DNA of 6,904 bases, from the IMG/VR virus record IMGVR_UViG_2778261593_000001, positions 1 through 6,904 of that record. One strand, written 5' to 3'. This DNA comes from a virus. Its lineage: Duplodnaviria; Heunggongvirae; Uroviricota; Caudoviricetes. Of this stretch, positions 1-6,904 are shown in pieces. The notes under the pieces were generated by a model that was given only the letters and a program-made list of their open reading frames with translations, was not told where the DNA came from and did no database searches. Each line of letters begins with the position of its first letter. Position 1 is the first letter of the stretch. Position numbers and translations under genes: made by a program.

Positions 1-2
1 TA

Positions 3-140
3 ATCAGTGACGAAGACAGGGAGAAGCTGAAAGCGTACCGCATTTACGCGAAATCGCTGCAGGCGATGGATTTCAGCGCTATTACGGATAAGACCACTTA
101 CAACAATATTAGCTGGCCTGAGCAGCCACAAAATACCTGA
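3..140 (+). CDS. Tail fiber assembly chaperone (Tfa / P2 gpG-like), C-terminal fragment; 5' end lies upstream of the window
   Basis: Frame-3 reading is open from the window edge to TGA at 138-140 and translates to ISDEDREKLKAYRIYAKSLQAMDFSAITDKTTYNNISWPEQPQNT. The KxYR...D.S...I.WPE.P pattern matches the conserved C-terminus of lambda Tfa-type chaperones as I recall it (lambda Tfa ends ...[29 protein letters not shown]). Position immediately upstream of the sheath gene matches P2 gene G. No start codon or RBS can be seen because the gene is truncated. Confidence 0.45.
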   Translation: MSDEDREKLKAYRIYAKSLQAMDFSAITDKTTYNNISWPEQPQNT

Positions 141-194: not shown

Positions 195-1670
195 ATGTCC
201 GGATTACATGGTGTTGAAACCATTGAACTGACGACAGGCACGGTTGCCGTGCAGACCATCTCCACGGCAGTGATTGGCCTGGTGGGGACAGCGCCGGACG
301 CCTCTGGTGGTGTGTGCGCTTCCGGCACAGCCGGCTCCTGGCTGCTGGGAACGGCGCTGGATTTCACGGCGAAACAGGAAGGTCGGGCCGGTAATAAGAT
401 TTCGGTTGTTGCTGTGGCTGCCACAGAACAAAATGCGCAGACAGTGGCCTCGCTGAAAGGTACGACCCTGACGATAACACTGGGGACGGACGAACACAGC
501 CAGGTTAACGCCACGGCGGACCGTGTGACTGAAGTGGTGAATGCGCTGGGGGATTCGCCTGTGACGGCGGCTGTCAGCACCCTGAATGCAGGAGACGCTG
601 AAAATAAAGTGGTGTTGCCGTTCAGCCTGACGTTATCCGGCGGAGAAGATGAGGCGTTCCCGGTCAATACACCAGTGGTGGTGGCAGGGGCCATTACTCA
701 GGCCGGGAAACTGGGCACAGCCGGAACATTATACCCGGCCCTGCGAGATATTTTTGACCAGACTGGGGCGCTGGTGATTGTGGTGCGCGCAGAAAGTAAA
801 ACAAAGGCGAAAGAGGCCGAACAGCGTGCGGCGGTGATTCAGGCCATGGAGGCGCTGACAGAAAGTAAGGGCGTGACAGGCTATCAACCGCGCATCCTCA
901 TCGCCACGGGGTACAGTGAGGATGATGGCGTGGCAAAGGCGCTGGAAACGTATGCCGCGAAGTTGCGGGCTGTGGCCTATATTGACTCGTCCTCAATGGC
1001 AACGCCGCAGGATGTGGTTCAGCGGCGCGCGTCATTTGGCGGACGTGTGGAGCTGCTGCGTCCGCGCGTGTCAGTGACGGATGACAGCGGGCAAACGGTA
1101 TTTCGTCCATATTCGGCTCGTGCTGCCGGGCTGCGTGCCCGTATTGATTATGAAAAAGGGTGGTGGTGGTCCAAATCAAACCAGGACGTGATGAATATCA
1201 CCGGTCTGGAGCAGGTGGATACGTTTATTCTCGGGGAGCAGAACTGCACGGCAAACCTGCTGAACATGGAAAATATCTCCACCATTATTCGCCATGACGG
1301 TTTTAAACACTGGGGTAACCGTCTGTGCACATCCCACAGTCAGTGGCGCTTTGAACCGGTACGTCGCACTGCAGATGTGATTGAGGACAGTATCCAGGAG
1401 GCCATGTTGCCTTATGTCGATCGCCCGCTTGATCGGGATGTGGCAGACGACATTCTTGGCAGCATTAATGCCTATATGCGTCAGCTTAAAAATCTGGGTG
1501 CGATCCACGGTGGCAGCGCCTGGCTGAATGATGAACTGAATACAGCAGAAACCCTGGCGGCAGGGCAGTTGTATATCGATTATGACTTTGGGCCGAAGTC
1601 ACCACTGGAGCGCCTGACACTGCGGGCAATGATTAACAATAAACTGGCGCTGGAGGAACTGACGGTATGA
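195..1670 (+). CDS. Contractile tail sheath protein (P2 gpFI family), 491 aa
   Basis: Complete ORF with SD-like GGGAG at 184-188, 6 nt before ATG 195. N-terminus MSGLHGVETIELTTGTVAVQTISTAVIGLVGTAPDA and internal motifs (GYQPRILIATG, ARAAGLRARIDYEKGWWWSKSN, RHDGFKHWGNRLCT, AETLAAGQLYIDYDFGPKSPLERLTLR) match the P2 FI sheath as I recall it ([37 protein letters not shown]..., [63 protein letters not shown]). Confidence 0.9.
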   Translation: MSGLHGVETIELTTGTVAVQTISTAVIGLVGTAPDASGGVCASGTAGSWLLGTALDFTAKQEGRAGNKISVVAVAATEQNAQTVASLKGTTLTITLGTDEHSQVNATADRVTEVVNALGDSPVTAAVSTLNAGDAENKVVLPFSLTLSGGEDEAFPVNTPVVVAGAITQAGKLGTAGTLYPALRDIFDQTGALVIVVRAESKTKAKEAEQRAAVIQAMEALTESKGVTGYQPRILIATGYSEDDGVAKALETYAAKLRAVAYIDSSSMATPQDVVQRRASFGGRVELLRPRVSVTDDSGQTVFRPYSARAAGLRARIDYEKGWWWSKSNQDVMNITGLEQVDTFILGEQNCTANLLNMENISTIIRHDGFKHWGNRLCTSHSQWRFEPVRRTADVIEDSIQEAMLPYVDRPLDRDVADDILGSINAYMRQLKNLGAIHGGSAWLNDELNTAETLAAGQLYIDYDFGPKSPLERLTLRAMINNKLALEELTV

Positions 1671-2185
1671 TTACGGGTGAAAAAAAACTGTTGCGCGCAT
1701 GGGCGTTATTTCTTCCTGGCGGGATCCGCCTTCAGGGTGCGCATGAATACACGCCGCCTGCCATTAATATCACGACAGTGGATATCAAAACCGGCGCAAT
1801 GGATGCACCGGTGGCAGTGGATGACGGCATGGAAGCGCTGACCTGTTCGTTTAAGATTTATGGTTATGATGTTGCCATGCTTACGCTGCTGGGATTGCAG
1901 GCCGGGCTTTATTCGCCGGAGATTGTTGTGCGCCAGGCTTATCAGGTGGGAAATGCGACCAGCGGACTGGTGGAAACTCTGCAGGGGATGATCACCAGTA
2001 TCACGCCGGATGCACGTCCGGCAACATCACAGGCAGAGGCTTCGGTGACGGTGGAAATGTCGCTGAGTTATTACCGTCAGGCTGTCGACGGTCTGGAAAC
2101 CATCTGTATTATTCCGGAGGAATTTGTACGTCGTATTAACGGCGTTAATGTTCTGTCGGATCTGAAAAAAATCATCCGGGTTTAA
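1667..2185 (+). CDS. Tail tube protein (P2 gpFII family), 172 aa
   Basis: ATG overlaps the sheath stop (ATGA at 1667-1670), with GGAGGA at 1652-1657 nine nt upstream. The size and the position directly after the sheath gene fit a tube protein, and the translation (KKLLRAWALFL..., EALTCSFKIYGY, YYRQAVDGLETICIIPEEFVRRINGVN) resembles the P2 FII pattern as I recall it. Confidence 0.85.
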   Translation: MITGEKKLLRAWALFLPGGIRLQGAHEYTPPAINITTVDIKTGAMDAPVAVDDGMEALTCSFKIYGYDVAMLTLLGLQAGLYSPEIVVRQAYQVGNATSGLVETLQGMITSITPDARPATSQAEASVTVEMSLSYYRQAVDGLETICIIPEEFVRRINGVNVLSDLKKIIRV

Positions 2186-2204
2186 TCCGGGTATCCTGTC
2201 ATTC

Positions 2205-2229
2205 AGGCGGCTCAGGCCGCCTTTTTTTT
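2205..2229 (+). terminator. Rho-independent terminator or attenuator between the tube and chaperone genes
   Basis: Perfect 7-bp GC-rich stem aggcggc (2205-2211) / gccgcct (2216-2222) with loop tcag, followed by eight T (2222-2229). It lies 19 nt after the tube stop and ends just before the SD of the next gene. Confidence 0.7.
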
Positions 2230-2240
2230 AGGAGATGCTT

Positions 2241-2543
2241 ATGTCGGAAAAAAACAGTGTTCCTGCCAGCTGCGTGGAAATTGTGTTATCCGTGCCGTAT
2301 GTCACCGCATCAGGACAGACGATCACGCACGTCACCATGCGTGCGCCCACCGTCCGCGATCGTCTGTTGCATCGCCGGAGTACCAAACCGGAAGCAGAGG
2401 CTGATCTGGATATGATTGCCGGTCTGTGCGGGATGGACGCGGCAGACATGATGAACATGGAAGCGTGTGATTACCTGGCCCTGGAGCGGCAGTTTAATGT
2501 TTTTTTGCTGCCGCCGGTCCGGCGGAAGAAGAAAACATCCTGA
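2241..2543 (+). CDS. Tail assembly chaperone (P2 gpE-like), 100 aa, zero-frame product
   Basis: AGGAG at 2230-2234 lies 6 nt before ATG 2241 (product MSEKNSVPAS...). The ORF track starts at ATG 2235, but that codon abuts the SD, so 2241 is preferred. A small acidic protein sitting between the tube and tape-measure genes is the canonical chaperone position. Confidence 0.75.
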   Translation: MSEKNSVPASCVEIVLSVPYVTASGQTITHVTMRAPTVRDRLLHRRSTKPEAEADLDMIAGLCGMDAADMMNMEACDYLALERQFNVFLLPPVRRKKKTS

Positions 2544-2680
2544 TGGCGATACGGCGTGCCGGAGTATGGTTCGGGTGGTCACCCGGAGATGTGATGGCAC
2601 TGCCGTATGAGGATTTTGTGGCAATAATGCTGGCAGAGGCGGAAGAGAGGAAGCAGTGTTATGGCAACGGTGGGCGATAA
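2241..2680 (+). CDS. Tail assembly chaperone frameshift product (P2 gpE+E'-like), about 146 aa, made by -1 ribosomal frameshift at 2501-2507
   Basis: Slippery heptamer T TTT TTG at 2501-2507 is in the X XXY YYZ register of the E frame. The -1 frame is open from 2507 to TAA at 2678-2680, adding AAAGPAEEENILMAIRRAGVWFGWSPGDVMALPYEDFVAIMLAEAEERKQCYGNGGR, and it overlaps the tape-measure start at 2661 by 20 nt. This is the conserved chaperone recoding architecture (P2 E/E', lambda G/GT). Confidence 0.65.
2501..2507 (+). other. -1 programmed ribosomal frameshift slippery heptamer TTTTTTG
   Basis: Seen directly: zero-frame codons GTT TTT TTG at 2499-2507. A 5-bp GC stem ccgcc (2511-2515) / ggcgg (2521-2525) begins 3 nt downstream. 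Confidence 0.6.
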
Positions 2681-4313
2681 CCTCAGAGCAAATATCCGGA
2701 TCGGCGGCACTATTGATCCGTCGTGGAAAAAATCGACAGAGGGGCTGAAGCGAGGTCTGGCTGGTGCGACACAGGAAGTGGCACGCCTGACGCGTCAGCA
2801 GGATGTACTGAAGCGAAAAATTCAGGCTGGCGTACTGGCAGGGCAGGATATTACCGATCTGCGAAAGCAGTATGAAAAGCTGAAACGGAAAATCAATGAT
2901 GCTGCAGCGGAGCAGGAGCGATTTAATCGCCAGCTTGAACGGGCAGAGCGCCTGGAACGCTGGAAAGGACGGGCAGGGACATTTCTTAAAACCGGACTCG
3001 GGCTCTCTGTTGGTTCCGGGCTGACGCTGGCAGCAGGTGCCAGCGCGGTACTGAACCGGAATTCGGAAACGGCAGAGCGGGCAGGAATAGCCCGGAGTTA
3101 CGGGGTGGATTACGAAACCTATGCGGCGTGGGATTCACTGGGCCGTCAGATGGGGTTAAACGGCGAAAACATTGGTGATCTGTTTGAGGAATACCGGAAC
3201 AAGGTTTTTGACGATGATAATGGTGCCACGGACAAAGGAGCCATTCAGGAGGTATTCGGTAAACTGGGGCTGAAAGCGGGCGTAATGGCCGGAAAAAACA
3301 ACCAGGAACAGGTCGAATTTTTGTTTGATCGCTTACTGCAGGTGGAGAATGAGCAGCAGGCGGCGGGGATGGCAGATGCGCTGTTTGGGGGGGAGGCCAA
3401 TAAAATTCTGACCTGGATGCGTCTGTCAGGAAAAACCTTCCGGGAGCTTATCAGTGAGCAGAAACGCTATAACCTGGTGACAAAAGAAGGGGCTGATGGT
3501 GCAGTTCAGGGGCATGTGGCGCTGTCAAATTTCCGTAATGTTCTGAGTTCTTCCATTGATGACATCAGTGGGAAACTGGGTAAGGAGCTGGCACCACATA
3601 TTCAACAAGTGACGGATGATCTTGCGGCCTGGTTTAAGAATGGTGGACTTGAAAAAATCCGGGCATTTATCCGTGATGATGCCCTGCCGGCGCTGATCGA
3701 CATGGCTGCGTGGATGTGGAAATTCGGAAAAGTTCTTGCCGGAATAACGCAGAAAGCCATTGAGTGGGGGCTGGCGGATGATCCGCGAGAGGACCGACGA
3801 GAAGTGCTGGAATATCTGGCAAAAATGGGGTCGCCGGAGCTGGCGAGAGCGGTGGCGCAGAAAAACGGTCAGGGTGAATGGTTTGATGAACTTCTCAGGC
3901 AAAATCCGGACCTGACGAAACAGGTTGTACAGGCCTATAAAGACACTCGCGGTTATCTCCCATGGAATCATGACGATAAAAAGTTTGATGCATTTCTCGA
4001 CCCTTTGTTGGGACCGAAAGAAGAACCTGATTTTAAGGCGATAAAAGAGAAATCCCGCACCTACATTGACAGACTTCCTGCAGCAGATCAGGGGCAGGGT
4101 AATTCGGACCCTCTCTCGGCTCTTCAGTATACCCCCGGCAGTATCAGCCAGGTGGAAGTAAAACCCACGTATCAGATACGGGCGGAATTTAACATCACTC
4201 AGAAGCCCGGCGAGGATGCCGGACAACTGGCAGACAGGGTAACGAAAAATCTGGGAGATATTAATTTTGGTCAGCGTTCCCGCATGACCGATGGTGATGC
4301 ATTCTGGGGGTGA
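2661..4313 (+). CDS. Tail tape measure protein (P2 gpT-like), 550 aa
   Basis: Position directly after the frameshifted chaperone pair. The N-terminal region is charged and coiled-coil-like (LKRKIQAG...LRKQYEKLKRKINDAAAEQERFNRQLERAERLER). A Gly-rich hydrophobic segment GTFLKTGLGLSVGSGLTLAAGASAVL spans about aa 105-131 (nt 2973-3053), as is typical of tape measure proteins. RBS-like AGGAAG lies 8 nt upstream of ATG 2661. Confidence 0.8.
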   Translation: MATVGDNLRANIRIGGTIDPSWKKSTEGLKRGLAGATQEVARLTRQQDVLKRKIQAGVLAGQDITDLRKQYEKLKRKINDAAAEQERFNRQLERAERLERWKGRAGTFLKTGLGLSVGSGLTLAAGASAVLNRNSETAERAGIARSYGVDYETYAAWDSLGRQMGLNGENIGDLFEEYRNKVFDDDNGATDKGAIQEVFGKLGLKAGVMAGKNNQEQVEFLFDRLLQVENEQQAAGMADALFGGEANKILTWMRLSGKTFRELISEQKRYNLVTKEGADGAVQGHVALSNFRNVLSSSIDDISGKLGKELAPHIQQVTDDLAAWFKNGGLEKIRAFIRDDALPALIDMAAWMWKFGKVLAGITQKAIEWGLADDPREDRREVLEYLAKMGSPELARAVAQKNGQGEWFDELLRQNPDLTKQVVQAYKDTRGYLPWNHDDKKFDAFLDPLLGPKEEPDFKAIKEKSRTYIDRLPAADQGQGNSDPLSALQYTPGSISQVEVKPTYQIRAEFNITQKPGEDAGQLADRVTKNLGDINFGQRSRMTDGDAFWG

Positions 4314-4315
4314 AC

Positions 4316-4804
4316 ATGGTGGATTTGCTGGGCTGGGGCGTAAACCGGCTTGAACGTGAAGCATGGGATGCGGTGGGTTCATTAACGGATGTCGCCTCCC
4401 GCGTCATGCTGTCGTTTGGTGAGTTTGAATTCAGTATTGATACGGCGGCCTATAACGCCATGAAGCGCACTATGGAATGGCGATGGGATGAACAGCAGCT
4501 TATCGGAAAAAACGACCTGTTGCAGTATACCGGTAAGGGGGCCAGAACAATAACCCTTGAAGGCATGGTGCATGCGGGATTTCGTGACGGTGTGGGAATG
4601 GATGCCCTTGATACGCTGGTTCAGATGGTGGATGACAATCCGGCCCCGCAGTTACTGGTCTCAAGTACAGGCGATGTGATGGGGTATTTCGTGGCAACCG
4701 CCTATTCAGATAACACCACGTCCTTTCTTCCCGGCGGGGCGCCAAAGAACAAAACGTTCACACTGGAGCTGAAATACTATGGCGAAAAACTGGCGGACCA
4801 CTGA
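4316..4804 (+). CDS. Tail protein, P2 gpU-like, about 162 aa
   Basis: The ORF track calls a GTG start at 4310 overlapping the tape-measure stop (4311-4313). I prefer ATG 4316, which is preceded by GGGGGTGA, a good SD. Size and position (after the tape measure, before gpX and gpD homologs) match gpU. The family assignment is by synteny and size more than by a motif I can verify. Confidence 0.7.
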   Translation: MVDLLGWGVNRLEREAWDAVGSLTDVASRVMLSFGEFEFSIDTAAYNAMKRTMEWRWDEQQLIGKNDLLQYTGKGARTITLEGMVHAGFRDGVGMDALDTLVQMVDDNPAPQLLVSSTGDVMGYFVATAYSDNTTSFLPGGAPKNKTFTLELKYYGEKLADH

Positions 4805-4997
4805 CGGCGATATGCTGGATGACATCTGCCAGAGACACTATGGCAGCGCCGGACTTAACCAGTCACTGGCGGCGGTACTGGAAGCCAATCCCGGACTGGC
4901 TGACCTTGGTCCGGTATATCCGGCAGGTGTGGAAATCGTGTTGCCGGACTGGGTGTATGAACCGGAGGAAAAGGAGACGTTTCAGTTATGGGACTGA
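4779..4997 (+). CDS. Tail protein X (P2 gpX-like, LysM-like small tail protein), 72 aa
   Basis: Translation MAKNWRTTDGDMLDDICQRHYGSAGLNQSLAAVLEANPGLADLGPVYPAGVEIVLPDW aligns with P2 gpX as I recall it (MKTFALQGDTLDAICVRYYGRTEGVVETVLAANPGLAELGAVLPHGTAVELPD). It overlaps the gpU-like stop by 26 nt and the gpD-like start by 10 nt. Confidence 0.85.
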   Translation: MAKNWRTTDGDMLDDICQRHYGSAGLNQSLAAVLEANPGLADLGPVYPAGVEIVLPDWVYEPEEKETFQLWD

Positions 4998-6076
4998 ATG
5001 AGTATCAGCCGGATTTCAGCCTGACAGCAGAGGGTGAGGATATCACGAAGGCCATAAAGCGGGGGCTGGCTGAGCTGCGATATACCGATAATGGTGCTGC
5101 CACAAAGCGCTCCGATGAACTGATGATAACCCTGTTCAGTGAGACGATGGCGCTGCCACCAAAAGGCGCGGTATTAACGCTGGGGCTGGGATTCAACGGA
5201 AACCTGGTAAATAAAGGCAGTTTTACCGTCTGTCAGGTGGCAAGTGGAGGTCCTCCCCGCCGAATCACCATTTATGCCACCGCAGCCCCCATGAATGCGT
5301 CAAAACATGGCGCAGACGTGACCGCACTGAAAACCCGTGCGTTCAGCGATGTCTCGCTGGGTGACCTGGTGAAAACGATCGCCACTGAAAATAATCTGGT
5401 GGCACGGATCTCACCGGCGCTGGCAAAAATTCGTATTCCGTGGTTGATGCAGTCATCTGAATCGGATGCGTCCCTGCTTTCCAGGCTTGCTGGTTTGTAT
5501 GGTGCCACCAGTAAGCCAACGAACGGTTACTGGTTATTTCTGGAGTATGGCGCATCACAGAGCACAGGCGGCAGGGATGCTCCTGTAATGACCATCACGC
5601 CGGATATGGTGTCAGACTGGGATTACCGGGAGGGGGAGCGGCAGGGCGCATCCGGAAGCGGAAAAGGAACAACAAAAAAAGGGAAAGTGGGAGTCAGATA
5701 TTTTGACCCTCGCGACGGGCGAACGCGTGAATTTAAAGTGGATGTGGAGTCCACCGACAAGCGACATCCGTTCACTCAGCCGGATCAGGACACAGCAAAA
5801 CACTGCGCAGACTCCAAGGTTAAACGTGTACAGAAAGCCGGACGCCAGATGACGATAACACTGCCCTGCAGGCCCGCATTGTTGAAAGCTGGGGCGGAAA
5901 TGCGTTTTATCACGCAGGGTTTTGGGGTACGCGAGGATCATAACTGGCAGGCTGAGTCGGTGGAGTTTTCACTGGCACCGGGGCAGGGATTTACGCTGAA
6001 TCTGTCGCTGGCCACCGATATCTCCGCGAAAGGGAAAGCATCAGGGAAGAAAAAAGGCGTGAATTATTACGGTTAA
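4988..6076 (+). CDS. Baseplate hub / late control protein D (P2 gpD family), 362 aa
   Basis: ATG 4988 lies inside the 3' end of the gpX-like gene (translational coupling). Translation motifs ELRYTDNGAATKRSDELMITLFSE, LPPKGAVLTLGLGFNGNLVNKGSFTVCQV and ARISPALAKIRIPWLMQSSESDASLLSRLA match the Phage_GPD family pattern as I recall it for P2 gpD (...LTDNAGGKADELQITLSD..., ...SGLVNKGTFTVDQV..., ...APALAGI...LDQTNESDLHLLTRLA). Confidence 0.85.
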   Translation: MGLNEYQPDFSLTAEGEDITKAIKRGLAELRYTDNGAATKRSDELMITLFSETMALPPKGAVLTLGLGFNGNLVNKGSFTVCQVASGGPPRRITIYATAAPMNASKHGADVTALKTRAFSDVSLGDLVKTIATENNLVARISPALAKIRIPWLMQSSESDASLLSRLAGLYGATSKPTNGYWLFLEYGASQSTGGRDAPVMTITPDMVSDWDYREGERQGASGSGKGTTKKGKVGVRYFDPRDGRTREFKVDVESTDKRHPFTQPDQDTAKHCADSKVKRVQKAGRQMTITLPCRPALLKAGAEMRFITQGFGVREDHNWQAESVEFSLAPGQGFTLNLSLATDISAKGKASGKKKGVNYYG

Positions 6077-6101
6077 TGGTTTTCTGAATCAGGAAATAAA
6101 A

Positions 6102-6904
6102 ATGTCTGTATTAATTTCTGGTGTGCTGACTGATGGGGCGGGGCTTCCCATGTCCGGATACCATATTATTCTGAAAGCCCGACAGAATACAGCCGCAGTG
6201 GTTATGAGAACGGTGGCAACAGTGGTGACGGGGCCGGCAGGAGAATATGCATTTGAGGCTCAGACCGGAAGATATGACGTTTATCTTCGGTCATGTATTG
6301 AAAGAGAATATTGTGTTGGTGATATTTCGGTTTACGACGACTCTAGGCCCGGCACACTGAACGACTTTCTGACTGCCCTTGATGAAGGCGACCTCAAACC
6401 CGACGTGGTGAAACGTTTTGAGGAACTGGTGGCGCAGGCGCAGCAGAGCGCGGAAGCGGCAGCGGAAAGCGAACGACAGGCCGGGCAACACGCAGCTGAT
6501 GCGCAGAAGATTAAGGGTGATTGCCAGACGCTGGCAGATAATGTTCAGCAGAATACAAATGCTGTGGAGGAAAACACGCAGCGCGTTGAACAGCTGGCCT
6601 CGCAGGTTGAGGATACCGCTGAAGAAGTCAGGCAGGATGCTGAAGCCGCCAAACAGGCCGCATCCGATGCAGAGCAGGCCAGAGATGATATTGATGTTGC
6701 GTTATCTGCAACGCTGAAAACGGCGAATCACCTGTCAGAAATTGCAGCAGAGGGGGAAGATGCTCAGCAGAAATCCCGAGACAATCTGGGGTTGAAAAGT
6801 GCTGCAACGATGGATGTGCAAACAGACATTTACGACCGTACCGAAGGCCGCCTGGCAATACCCGGTGCATTCGGATACGGAGCTATCTTCCGCTCAGAAA
6901 AATC
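6102..6904 (+). CDS. Tail fiber protein, N-terminal portion (lambdoid side-tail-fiber Stf-type N-terminal domain plus Ala/Gln/Glu-rich shaft); 3' end lies beyond the window
   Basis: Not in the ORF track because it has no stop inside the window. Frame 0 is open from ATG 6102 to the window end (267 codons), with AGGAAA 5 nt upstream. N-terminus MSVLISGVLTDGAGLPMSGYHIILKARQNTAAVVMRTV...GDISVYDDSRPGTLNDFLTALDEGDLKPDVVKRFEELV closely parallels the lambda Stf N-terminus as I recall it (MAVKISGVLKDGTGKPVQNCTIQLKARRNSTTVVVNTV...GTITVYEDSQPGTLNDFLCAMTEDDARPEVLRRLELMV). It is followed by a coiled-coil-like shaft and a ...RLAIPGAFGYG... motif. Confidence 0.8.
   Translation, partial: MSVLISGVLTDGAGLPMSGYHIILKARQNTAAVVMRTVATVVTGPAGEYAFEAQTGRYDVYLRSCIEREYCVGDISVYDDSRPGTLNDFLTALDEGDLKPDVVKRFEELVAQAQQSAEAAAESERQAGQHAADAQKIKGDCQTLADNVQQNTNAVEENTQRVEQLASQVEDTAEEVRQDAEAAKQAASDAEQARDDIDVALSATLKTANHLSEIAAEGEDAQQKSRDNLGLKSAATMDVQTDIYDRTEGRLAIPGAFGYGAIFRSEK

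Follow-up and report, generated by a model that had tools for sequence, protein, structure and literature searches.

A probable second tail fiber with a lambda Stf-type anchor is encoded after gpD in a lineage of contractile-tailed Escherichia coli prophages

The open reading frame that begins at position 6102 of the 6,904-nucleotide stretch of DNA analyzed here (the window) very probably encodes the first 267 of the 475 residues of an accessory (‘side’) fiber, carried by a prophage that joins a lambda-type head to a contractile tail of P2 gene order. We read this gene, which directly follows gpD, as that of a second, swappable receptor-binding fiber with its own chaperone in a common E. coli prophage lineage. 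Its product is called fiber 2 below, and the fiber encoded upstream of the sheath gene is called fiber 1.

All features of the window lie on the plus strand. The window opens with the 3′ end of a Tfa-type assembly gene (positions 3 to 140; PF02413, E 1.3e-8) that serves the first, baseplate fiber of P2 gpH type and has a homologous stretch at the end of L55 in phiP27. A sequence-only reading of the window had taken this gene end to imply a fiber locus further upstream, and near-identical contigs indeed carry a gpH-type fiber gene and Tfa there. In the contig L003, which is 99.7% identical to the window (21 mismatches; identical over 4818 to 6904), a 461-residue fiber with a PF12571 N-terminus is followed by a full Tfa of 181 residues. 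No exact copy of the window was present among the fetched loci, of which L003 is the best stand-in. Between the Tfa and sheath genes lies a terminator-like hairpin followed by a T run (159 to 183), a consensus match only, in which a 7-pair stem with five G-C pairs precedes TTTTT.

The genes that follow encode an FI-type tail sheath (195 to 1670; PF04984, PF17482 and PF22671), an FII-type tail tube (1667 to 2185; PF04985, E 1.8e-23) and the tail assembly chaperone E with its −1 frame extension E′ (2235 to 2680; PF10109, E 6e-12), where the slip site TTTTTTG (2500 to 2506) falls inside an overlapping −1 frame that is open to 2680. The 550-residue product of the gene at 2661 to 4313 is assigned as the tape measure protein by position and size; it gave no specific Pfam match and is 37-40% identical to the proteins at the same position in phages yong2 and Chris1. 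Next come a gpU-type tail protein (4310 to 4804; PF06995, E 1.2e-27), tail protein X (4779 to 4997; PF05489, E 2.9e-19) and a gpD-type baseplate hub (4988 to 6076, with the stop codon TAA at 6074 to 6076; phrog_52, E 5e-93). On sequence comparison the last of these is clearly a gpD-type hub, despite scoring 21.9 bits against PF05954, under the cut-off of 30.1; it is 29% identical to D of phiCTX (E 6e-23). From sheath to D, the tail genes are thus those named in the sequence-only reading.

Judged by its gene content, the element is an E. coli temperate prophage in which a lambda-type head and neck are joined to a contractile tail of P2 order. The head and neck genes upstream are of lambda type (gpW, PF02831; gpFII, PF05354; FI, PF14000; an S49 protease; a decoration protein), and the neck proteins encoded by the prophage are gpW-like, gpFII-like and Neck1-type. 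In P2, the capsid and packaging genes are Q, P, O, N, M and L, and ogr follows D; neither P2-type capsid and packaging genes nor an ogr gene after D was found in this prophage. The description of the locus as a P2-type tail module therefore stands for the order of the tail genes but not for the phage as a whole, and the suggestion that the element is a mosaic proved correct. A tailocin is ruled out by the full set of head and packaging genes upstream.

The fiber 2 reading frame starts with an ATG at 6102, 25 nucleotides past the gpD stop codon, and remains open to the end of the window (267 codons). The spacer (6077 to 6101) carries a Shine-Dalgarno sequence, AGGA (6091 to 6094), 7 nucleotides upstream of the ATG, and a consensus scan revealed neither terminator-like nor promoter-like sites within it, so that the spacing, the separate ribosome binding site and the lack of an intervening terminator are all as first described. 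The 23-nucleotide spacer that precedes the phiP27 homolog is unrelated to that of the window, and similarity between the two loci starts at the ATG. We infer that fiber 2 is cotranscribed with the sheath-to-D block. Transcription of this block would read through into the genes for fiber 2 and its chaperone, with no terminator to stop it, and these would be the final two genes of the late operon.

Fiber 2 is composed of three modules with separate histories: an anchor, a coiled-coil shaft and, at the C-terminus, a domain of high variability. The Stf-type N-terminal anchor, or ‘collar’, domain occupies residues 1 to 95 (6102 to 6386), as indicated by PF08400, PDB entry 9E7M, AF2 modeling and Foldseek. 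Residues 1 to 134 match positions 1 to 134 of the 134-position profile of PF08400, ‘Prophage tail fibre N-terminal’ (E 1.6e-56; 190 bits, the cut-off being 26.6), and residues 1 to 93 match the N-terminal domain of Ur-lambda Stf (PDB 9E7M/9MGH; phmmer E 1.4e-17), with 43 of the 93 residues identical (46%). The predicted structure of the anchor consists of six strands (residues 2 to 77) and a short helix (86 to 90), and Foldseek returns 9E7M as its top match (E 4.3e-9; TM 0.82 on the target). The lambda Stf-type domain that had been recognized from the letters of the sequence is therefore present, and the Pfam search proposed as its check places it, end to end, in the prophage tail fiber N-terminal family.

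Beyond the anchor, the AF2 model is disordered at residues 91 to 99 (pLDDT below 50), a predicted flexible linker (6372 to 6398), and then continues as a single helix from residue 100 to 228 (6399 to 6785; pLDDT above 90 over about residues 130 to 200). This helix would form a coiled-coil shaft that is presumably trimeric. The linker corresponds to that of lambda Stf at residues 92 to 101, which in Ur-lambda separates StfN (1 to 91) from a coiled coil (PMC12617516). A conserved junction between shaft and C-terminal domain (residues 229 to 259; 6786 to 6878) lies outside the AF2 model; it was recognized by a run of invariant columns in the alignment and contains …DIYDRTEGRLAIPGAFG…. The variable C-terminal domain starts within the window (residues 260 to 267; 6879 to 6904), where it is cut by the window end, and extends from residue 260 to 475 in L003.

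The separate histories of the modules are evident from comparisons with related fibers. Fiber 2 and its counterpart in the sister prophage L001 are 99% identical in the anchor, 94% in the shaft and 32% in the C-terminal domain, and relative to L56 of phiP27 the corresponding values are 76%, 95% (residues 100 to 259) and 32%. Across the family, C-terminal domains are 30-38% identical, and in a megablast comparison with ETEC1730 the similarity breaks at residue 260 (window position 6880). A second receptor-binding module had been proposed, and the gene behaves as an exchangeable module of this kind, with an anchor and shaft that are 94-99% conserved between sister prophages and a C-terminal domain that is conserved to about 32%. 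Searched by sequence, the C-terminal domain yielded no PDB match. An AF2 model of the full-length homolog P0004 was of modest quality (pLDDT 64), and Foldseek found nothing credible for it past the N-terminal domain, with fiber proteins of phi812, phage K and Pa193 at E values above 0.01. Because the C-terminal domain matches no solved receptor-binding domain, the probable role of fiber 2 in receptor binding rests on its position, its variability and its chaperone partner.

This partner lies outside the window, in the region downstream whose examination had been recommended. In L003, where fiber 2 is complete at 475 residues, a gene at 12553 to 13131, 10 nucleotides past the fiber 2 stop codon, encodes a 192-residue protein of the PF14301/DUF4376 family (E 4.4e-17). 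It is followed by Rha/Ash genes on the opposite strand and then by the chromosomal yciE/yciF and trp genes, which mark the prophage end. The downstream region thus supplied the expected C-terminal domain and a partner gene, but the partner is of DUF4376 rather than Tfa type. Searched by sequence, the DUF4376 protein yielded no PDB match. Two DUF4376 proteins of Alteromonas phages, V22 gp27 and A5 gp9, have been shown experimentally to be fiber chaperones (PMC7289586, PMC10579305), and by analogy the protein downstream of fiber 2 is a putative fiber chaperone. Partner genes vary across the prophages between DUF4376 and Tfa-type chaperones, and fiber lengths range from 465 to 854 residues. A further suggestion, that the gene might belong to a host-range cassette, does not hold for an invertible cassette of the Mu Gin, P1 Cin or e14 Pin type, because the locus has neither an invertase nor inverted repeats flanking alternative C-termini: no invertase gene was called downstream in contigs L003 to L007, and the only two inverted repeats in L003 from 10900 to 14400 are short and imperfect.

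Placement of this fiber gene after gpD had been considered the least canonical part of the window, and here the sequence-only reading fails. Among 5,426 complete E. coli genomes, 78 carry the gpD of the window, and fiber 2 adjoins it in at least 64 of these 78, a count that is a lower bound. The anchor domain was located at 247 places. Fiber 2 follows gpD in all eight of the contexts that were opened, and the genes are intact in each. A cross-species contig scan of 14 loci, whose contexts were read roughly by ORF size, is kept separate from these counts. Moreover, the first 399 nucleotides of the fiber gene are 90-96% identical where the adjacent gpD is only 85-87% identical. A fiber after gpD is therefore routine in this E. 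coli prophage lineage. Many such prophages reside in ETEC or STEC strains from pigs and cattle; lysogens with complete genomes include ETEC1730 and the strains A36 and M8.

It had been allowed that this arrangement would be ordinary if it proved standard in a well-described P2-like subgroup. The layout is indeed standard, but for this lineage rather than for a well-described subgroup, as no deposited phage with it was recovered by megablast, blastn or tblastn of gpD (the best gpD being 51% identical). Nor is the combination of two fibers new in itself, since the same set (L54 to L57) has been available from the sequenced phage phiP27 since 2002. Our literature search found no account of Stf-type fibers on temperate enterobacterial myoviruses; the ‘P27’ of PMC12502783 is an unrelated podovirus.

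The order of the genes suggests how this layout is built and how the two fibers might work together. In phiP27-type phages both fiber loci are contiguous where the tail module ends; P2 gene order puts the sheath-to-D block between Tfa and fiber 2, and fiber 2 consequently follows gpD. Fiber 1, with its P2 gpH-type N-terminus and Tfa, would be the canonical baseplate fiber. Fiber 2 would be held on the virion by its beta-sandwich anchor (residues 1 to 95), from which the linker would lead into a trimeric coiled-coil shaft of roughly 130 residues, and its fast-evolving C-terminal domain of about 215 residues, folded or capped by the DUF4376 chaperone, would bind a host surface receptor. In this manner fiber 2 would give the phage a second specificity that can be swapped, comparable to the contribution of Stf in Ur-lambda.

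In contractile tails, the junction between the tube and the tip ring is covered by sheath and baseplate. Because a lambda-type docking site at this junction would be buried, and because the sole solved precedent on a contractile tail, the collar spike gp40 of Vibrio myophage XM1, is located at the neck, the connector-terminator rings of the neck appear by analogy to be the single most likely docking site of fiber 2, although we hold this assignment at slightly below an even chance. The N-terminal domains of XM1 gp40 bind the connector gp4 and the terminator gp5 (PMC10457771), and a weak Foldseek match relates the anchor to the N-terminal domain of the A-1(L) neck fiber (8KEG; E 3.6e-3). The gpW-like, gpFII-like and Neck1-type neck proteins of the prophage itself also speak for this site. 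Candidate docking partners are the gpFII-like protein (9331 to 9735 in L001), the Neck1-type protein (9716 to 10438), a 183-residue protein (10450 to 11001), the C-terminal ring of the sheath and the gpJ/gpI wedge. Estimated from about 130 coiled-coil residues and a 215-residue head, fiber 2 would be roughly 25-30 nm long. With a tail built on a 550-residue tape measure, a neck-mounted fiber of this length would be too short to contact the cell at the same time as the baseplate, which argues against a simple neck-fiber role. Such a length would fit better at the baseplate periphery or the first sheath ring, where fiber 2 would sit beside the gpH-type fibers and both sets would engage the cell surface next to one another. 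This location is also closest to the place of the domain in lambda, just above the tail tip in Ur-lambda (PMC12617516), and is in keeping both with the position of the fiber 2 gene in phiP27-type phages, directly after the baseplate fiber and Tfa, and with a weak Foldseek match to 9D93 (E 0.018), a collar-like domain from the tail tip of Bxb1. We nevertheless consider a baseplate site unlikely. The surface used in lambda is the junction of the tube with the gpM ring, precisely the part that contractile tails cover, the only contractile-tail example among the significant PDB matches sits at the neck, and the baseplate proteins of the four fiber-bearing backbones are unrelated or of different types. 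Comparative genomics does not name a docking partner, since the window prophage, phiP27 and Rac-SA53 share only the fiber and chaperone genes even though the anchors of the latter two are 73-76% identical to that of the window.

The lack of a conserved partner detectable by tblastn of the structural proteins would also be expected if fiber and chaperone were passengers from lambdoid siphoviruses that are not built into the contractile-tailed particle, or are used only after recombination into another phage. The domain is matched at less than 60% identity in 278 of 282 phage records, and most of the matches listed come from lambda-type, Stx-converting and other phages whose annotation includes side or lateral tail fibers; moreover, fiber 2 is encoded where the late operon ends, a location in which cargo genes accumulate, and in one genome ipaH follows the cassette. 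We judge this explanation to be improbable, because the fiber gene is intact, has its own Shine-Dalgarno sequence at tight spacing and is better conserved in its 5′ part than the neighboring, essential gpD, and because the turnover of its C-terminal domain and chaperone type resembles that of functional receptor-binding proteins. In addition, anchors on sheath- or baseplate-encoding backbones are 73-99% identical to each other and 46% identical to that of lambda, which argues for a long-standing presence there and against repeated captures in recent times.

Another arrangement would be a single branched organelle in which the Stf-type N-terminal domain docks on fiber 1 or on retained Tfa. Branched receptor-binding complexes are known in phages G7C, CBA120 and DT57C, and phiP27, Rac-SA53 and the window prophage share only the C-terminal part of fiber 1, Tfa, fiber 2 and the DUF4376 gene. 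This joint transfer has a simpler explanation, namely that the four genes lie next to one another in phiP27-type phages. Furthermore, fiber 1, Tfa and the C-terminus of fiber 2 vary independently (strain M8; L001 versus L003), lambda has the same domain without any fiber 1, and both solved homologs bind ring-shaped tail or neck proteins rather than fibers. We therefore regard a branched organelle as very improbable.

With the neck as the favored site, it is tempting to propose, if only tentatively, that the Stf-type anchor is a portable adaptor that mounts extra neck fibers on contractile-tailed phages, as in XM1, serving at least four backbones of temperate E. coli myoviruses without a sequence-conserved partner and providing a receptor specificity of its own beside that of the baseplate fibers. 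If true, neck fibers combined with baseplate fibers would represent an architecture and adsorption route undescribed for enterobacterial temperate phages. Where on a sheathed tail a collar domain of lambda type would bind is a small and well-posed structural question. Because this anchor moves among four or more contractile-tail backbones and the lambdoid siphoviruses, it is a candidate general adaptor for engineering extra fibers onto phages or tailocins. For annotation and host-range prediction, such prophages should be treated as dual-fiber phages.

Comparison with named phages places this arrangement in context. P2 (V W J I H G / FI FII E E+E′ T U D) has the same order of baseplate, fiber and shaft blocks, the same TTTTTTG slip site for E and E+E′, and a gpH-type fiber with an assembly gene upstream of the sheath. 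The window prophage differs by its lambda-type head and neck, by X between U and D and by the fiber and chaperone genes after D, and the identity of its gpD to D of P2-type phages, phiCTX among them, does not exceed about 29%. The nearest deposited phages, Hafnia phage yong2 and Citrobacter phage Chris1, have lambda-type heads and the same sheath-tube-E-T-U-X-D block, with 44-63% protein identity from sheath to D. They differ in their order (V / sheath to D / W J I fiber Tfa) and have a single fiber locus, invertible in Chris1, without an Stf-type fiber. In the synteny comparison with P2 that had been suggested, the tail block thus keeps P2 order and the fiber after D is a departure from it.

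XM1 gp40 (PDB 7KJK; PMC10457771) resembles fiber 2 in its homologous Ig-like domain at the N-terminus, which leads into a coiled coil, in belonging to a contractile-tailed phage and in being encoded far from the neck genes. The relationship is distant (phmmer E 2.6e-5; Foldseek E 5.9e-7 to 7KJK; 25% identity), and the C-terminus of gp40 is a tailspike that needs no separate chaperone. Neck docking has been demonstrated for XM1, whereas for fiber 2 it is proposed by analogy.

Among phages that carry the fiber itself, phiP27 (L54 to L57; NC_003356) likewise encodes a sheath, a baseplate fiber, Tfa, an Stf-type fiber and a DUF4376 protein, the last two again being the final gene pair before the prophage end. 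Its four genes are contiguous after baseplate genes in Mu order, whereas about 5.9 kb (195 to 6076) intervenes in the window prophage, and all of its other structural proteins are unrelated to those of the window prophage. Two further, unrelated sheath- or baseplate-encoding backbones also have the cassette in contiguous form: it occurs in Rac-SA53 and prophages of E. coli W type, and in one whose baseplate is of DUF2612 type. The ipaH effector gene directly follows it in one genome. A tblastn comparison of all structural proteins of the window prophage, phiP27 and Rac-SA53 revealed no shared head, neck, sheath or baseplate proteins, and the anchors of the latter two are 73-76% identical to that of the window.

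The closest structurally characterized relative of the anchor is Ur-lambda Stf (PDB 9E7M/9MGH; PMC12617516), which is larger (774 residues, with a Tfa-type rather than a DUF4376-type chaperone) and from which the 475-residue fiber 2 also differs in its C-terminal domain, unrelated to any solved receptor-binding domain. Since the particle carrying fiber 2 has a contractile tail, the site used in lambda, the junction of the gpV and gpM rings, where twelve copies make up the collar, would not be exposed on it. In other respects the two fibers share one plan: a homologous PF08400 anchor, a linker of about 10 residues, a coiled-coil shaft and a C-terminal part that in fiber 2, too, would bind a receptor, encoded at the end of the late operon with a dedicated chaperone gene directly downstream and probably providing an accessory second specificity.

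The tail genes of the window are co-oriented on the + strand and form a single block. The 3′ end of a gene for a fibre assembly protein of the Tfa type (3-140; PF02413, E 1.3e-8) precedes the genes for the sheath (195-1670), the tube (1667-2185), chaperone E (2235-2543), a 550-aa tape measure (2661-4313), gpU (ending at 4804), tail protein X (4779-4997) and the gpD-type hub (4988-6076; TAA stop at 6074-6076). A 25-nt spacer reaching to 6101 carries AGGA at 6091-6094 and is followed by the fibre 2 ORF, which starts with the ATG at 6102 and comprises 267 codons, open at the window edge. A consensus scan of the interval between gpD and fibre 2 returned no terminator-like or promoter-like site. 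The factual statements of the sequence-only reading on the gpD stop, the spacer, the Shine-Dalgarno sequence, the missing terminator, the Tfa end and the fibre ORF were all confirmed.

Strong terminator-like hairpins with T runs are present on the + strand between the Tfa and sheath genes (159-183) and between the tube gene and E (2205-2230). The latter would attenuate transcription downstream of the high-copy sheath and tube genes and, if so, fibre 2 would share the low expression of the E-T-U-X-D genes. Close to the end of gene E, a TTTTTTG heptamer (2500-2506) accompanies a -1 frame extension (2543-2680, open to 2680); the same heptamer serves as the slip sequence of the P2 E/E+E′ programmed frameshift.

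The N-terminal domain of fibre 2 really is of the lambda Stf type, as the sequence-only reading had recognized. Residues 1-134 match the whole Pfam profile PF08400, ‘Prophage tail fibre N-terminal’ (E 1.6e-56), and among solved structures the closest relative is the Ur-lambda Stf N-terminal domain of 94 residues (PDB 9E7M/9MGH; phmmer E 1.4e-17; 43 of 93 residues identical). An AlphaFold2 model of the 267 residues places six strands (2-77) and a short helix before a disordered linker (91-99) and a single long helix (100-228), a plan shared with Ur-lambda Stf, in which StfN (1-91) and a linker (92-101) lead into a coiled coil (PMC12617516). When this model was compared with the PDB by Foldseek, 9E7M ranked top (E 4.3e-9; TM 0.82 on target). 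Fibre 2 agrees with the PF08400 family by every sequence and fold criterion, and PGAP already labels the gene routinely as ‘prophage tail fiber N-terminal domain-containing protein’.

The location of this gene directly after gpD, which had been considered unusual, is not an unusual placement. The gpD of the window (present in 58 collection blocks by exact look-up) occurs in 78 of 5,426 complete E. coli genomes, and in 64 of them a query joining X, D and the fibre start reaches a coverage of at least 80%; wherever both coordinates are listed, the fibre starts ~24-25 nt after D. All eight contexts opened (strain ETEC1730, five near-identical contigs, and strains A36 and M8) read D, Stf-type fibre, chaperone and prophage end, at three integration sites (ompW, ssrA and near potB). 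Fibre length varies between 465 and 854 aa across these contexts, with a chaperone of either the DUF4376 or the Tfa type. In M8 (L033, 7520-8122), the fibre is paired with an annotated ‘tail fiber assembly protein’ rather than with a DUF4376 protein, and fibre tip and chaperone class appear to be swapped as a unit. Fibre 2 follows gpD because, in the P2 gene order, the tail genes finish with the sheath-to-D block.

None of 50,697 deposited phage records has this layout. The nearest gpD proteins among them, from Hafnia phage yong2 (51% identity) and Citrobacter phage Chris1 (48%), belong to tails ordered V, sheath to D, then W, J, I, fibre and Tfa, with one fibre locus only. The sheath-to-D block therefore lies between V and W in these phages and after fibre and Tfa in the E. 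coli prophages, and two positions within the lambda-head, P2-type-tail group indicate transposition of the whole block inside the tail module. The possibility that the arrangement is standard in a well-described P2-like subgroup, which would have made it ordinary, holds in part: it is standard in this E. coli prophage lineage, which is not such a subgroup.

Contig L003 matches the window at all but 21 of 6,904 positions, with no difference over 4818-6904. Eighteen of the differences fall within 574 nt of the sheath gene (329-902), where five alter amino acids (residues 65-141), and the remainder of the 6.9 kb is nearly identical; this clustering points to a recombined stretch within the outer sheath domain. 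In L003, fibre 2 is 475 aa long, and the downstream partner that had been anticipated is encoded 10 nt 3′ of it as a 192-aa PF14301/DUF4376 protein, not a Tfa. Such proteins form a distinct fibre chaperone class, as shown experimentally for gp27 and gp9 of Alteromonas phages V22 and A5 (PMC7289586, PMC10579305). Rha and Ash genes on the opposite strand follow, and then chromosomal yciE/yciF and trp. Neither an invertase gene nor a substantial inverted repeat was found downstream of fibre 2, which is not part of an invertible cassette. The only protein on record that is 100% identical to fibre 2 is a 281-aa partial E. coli protein from a 6,995-nt contig. The source assembly therefore probably breaks inside the fibre gene, which fits with as many as six similar copies of the fibre in a single E. 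coli genome.

Strain ETEC1730, whose genome is complete, carries the same element (98.2% identical) as an entire prophage within ompW. It begins with lambda-type packaging, head and neck genes (terminase, gpW, portal, S49 protease, decoration protein, major capsid protein, FI and gpFII-like), followed by V-W-J-I, fibre 1 with Tfa, the sheath-to-D block, the Stf-type fibre and the DUF4376 protein. The counterpart of fibre 1 in L003 has a P2 gpH-type N-terminus (PF12571). The tail module is therefore P2-type in gene order, as had been claimed, but the element is a hybrid of lambda head and P2-order tail rather than a P2-like phage, because neither its head genes nor the gene after D are P2-like.

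Fibre 2 consists of three modules with separate histories. Its anchor (residues 1-95), shaft (100-259) and C-terminal domain (260-475) are 99%, 94% and 32% identical to those of the ETEC1730 sister prophage, and 76%, 95% and 32% identical to those of phiP27 L56; the anchor is 46% identical to Ur-lambda StfN and 25% to XM1 gp40. Nucleotide similarity to ETEC1730 ends at 6880, codon 260, just downstream of an invariant junction motif (…DIYDRTEGRLAIPGAFG…). The C-terminal domain belongs to one family throughout (30-38% identity), and neither sequence nor fold comparison finds a solved relative for it. Judged from sequence, its pattern is that of a putative receptor-binding tip under diversifying exchange with a cognate chaperone, and the swap (94-99% for anchor and shaft versus 32%) agrees with the second receptor-binding module that the sequence-only reading envisaged. 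The first 399 nt of fibre 2 are 90-96% identical in genomes whose adjoining gpD is only 85-87% identical, and the fibre and chaperone genes are intact, which argues against a decaying relic.

The two-fibre set also occurs outside this lineage. In phiP27, a tail module of Mu order closes with four contiguous genes, L54-L57 (fibre, Tfa, PF08400 fibre and DUF4376 protein); window positions 1-140 correspond to the end of L55, and from 6102 the window is similar to the start of L56. This cassette, again contiguous, also concludes the tail module in the Rac-SA53 and E. coli W-type prophages located at uspF/ompN, whose backbone encodes a sheath (phrog_205), and in a prophage with a DUF2612-type baseplate. 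In the long fibres of Rac-SA53 (tail3; 1,061 aa) and E. coli W (1,046 aa), residues ~558-674 form a second, internal segment that resembles the C-terminal domain over its first 120 residues; duplication of this domain may have contributed to the origin of the long fibres. Dual-fibre prophages also carry virulence cargo along: an ipaH effector gene directly 3′ of the fibre-chaperone pair in E. coli FDAARGOS_943 (L030, 11023-12849), LT-IIa enterotoxin genes between the endolysin and terminase genes in Rac-SA53 (L014, 1489-2629), and stx2e in phiP27.

What remains of interest is where fibre 2 docks and the apparent portability of its anchor across at least four contractile-tail backbones plus siphoviruses; we found no paper on either subject. 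In Ur-lambda, four Stf trimers contribute twelve StfN domains to a collar around the junction of the last gpV tube ring and gpM, contacted through the β4-β5 loop. In a contractile tail, a junction of this type is covered by sheath and baseplate. Apart from Ur-lambda Stf, the PDB yields just one significant relative, the Vibrio myophage XM1 protein gp40 (phmmer E 2.6e-5; Foldseek E 5.9e-7), whose Ig-like N-terminal domains bind connector gp4 and tail terminator gp5 at the neck (PMC10457771), and a weak fold match (Foldseek E 3.6e-3) links the anchor to the neck-fibre N-domain of cyanomyophage A-1(L) (PMC10966104). In both phages the neck-fibre gene is remote from the neck genes, as the fibre 2 gene is in this prophage. 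Because XM1 gp40 docks at the neck, the A-1(L) match agrees and the lambda site is covered, we tentatively rate the neck as the single most likely site, at somewhat less than even chances. Against it stands the estimated fibre length of roughly 25-30 nm, short for a neck fibre on a tail with a 550-aa tape measure; baseplate-proximal docking ranks next, with a somewhat lower probability. A further point against the neck is that the phiP27 and Rac-SA53 anchors are 73-76% identical to that of fibre 2, yet these two and this prophage have no detectable neck, sheath or baseplate protein in common, so that the contact is either shape-based and tolerant or made with a partner other than supposed.

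Beyond the domain identity, partner gene, position, modular exchange and prevalence observed for fibre 2, we propose that it would form trimers and act as an accessory fibre, transcribed together with the tail shaft genes, matured or capped by the DUF4376 protein, and supplementing the gpH-type baseplate fibre with another receptor specificity. In this it would resemble lambda Stf paired with a chaperone; Stf provides lambda with OmpC binding (PMC12617516). The phiP27-type dual-fibre set is matched by this prophage in content but not in contiguity and, as in lambda and phiP27, the accessory fibre closes the late operon.
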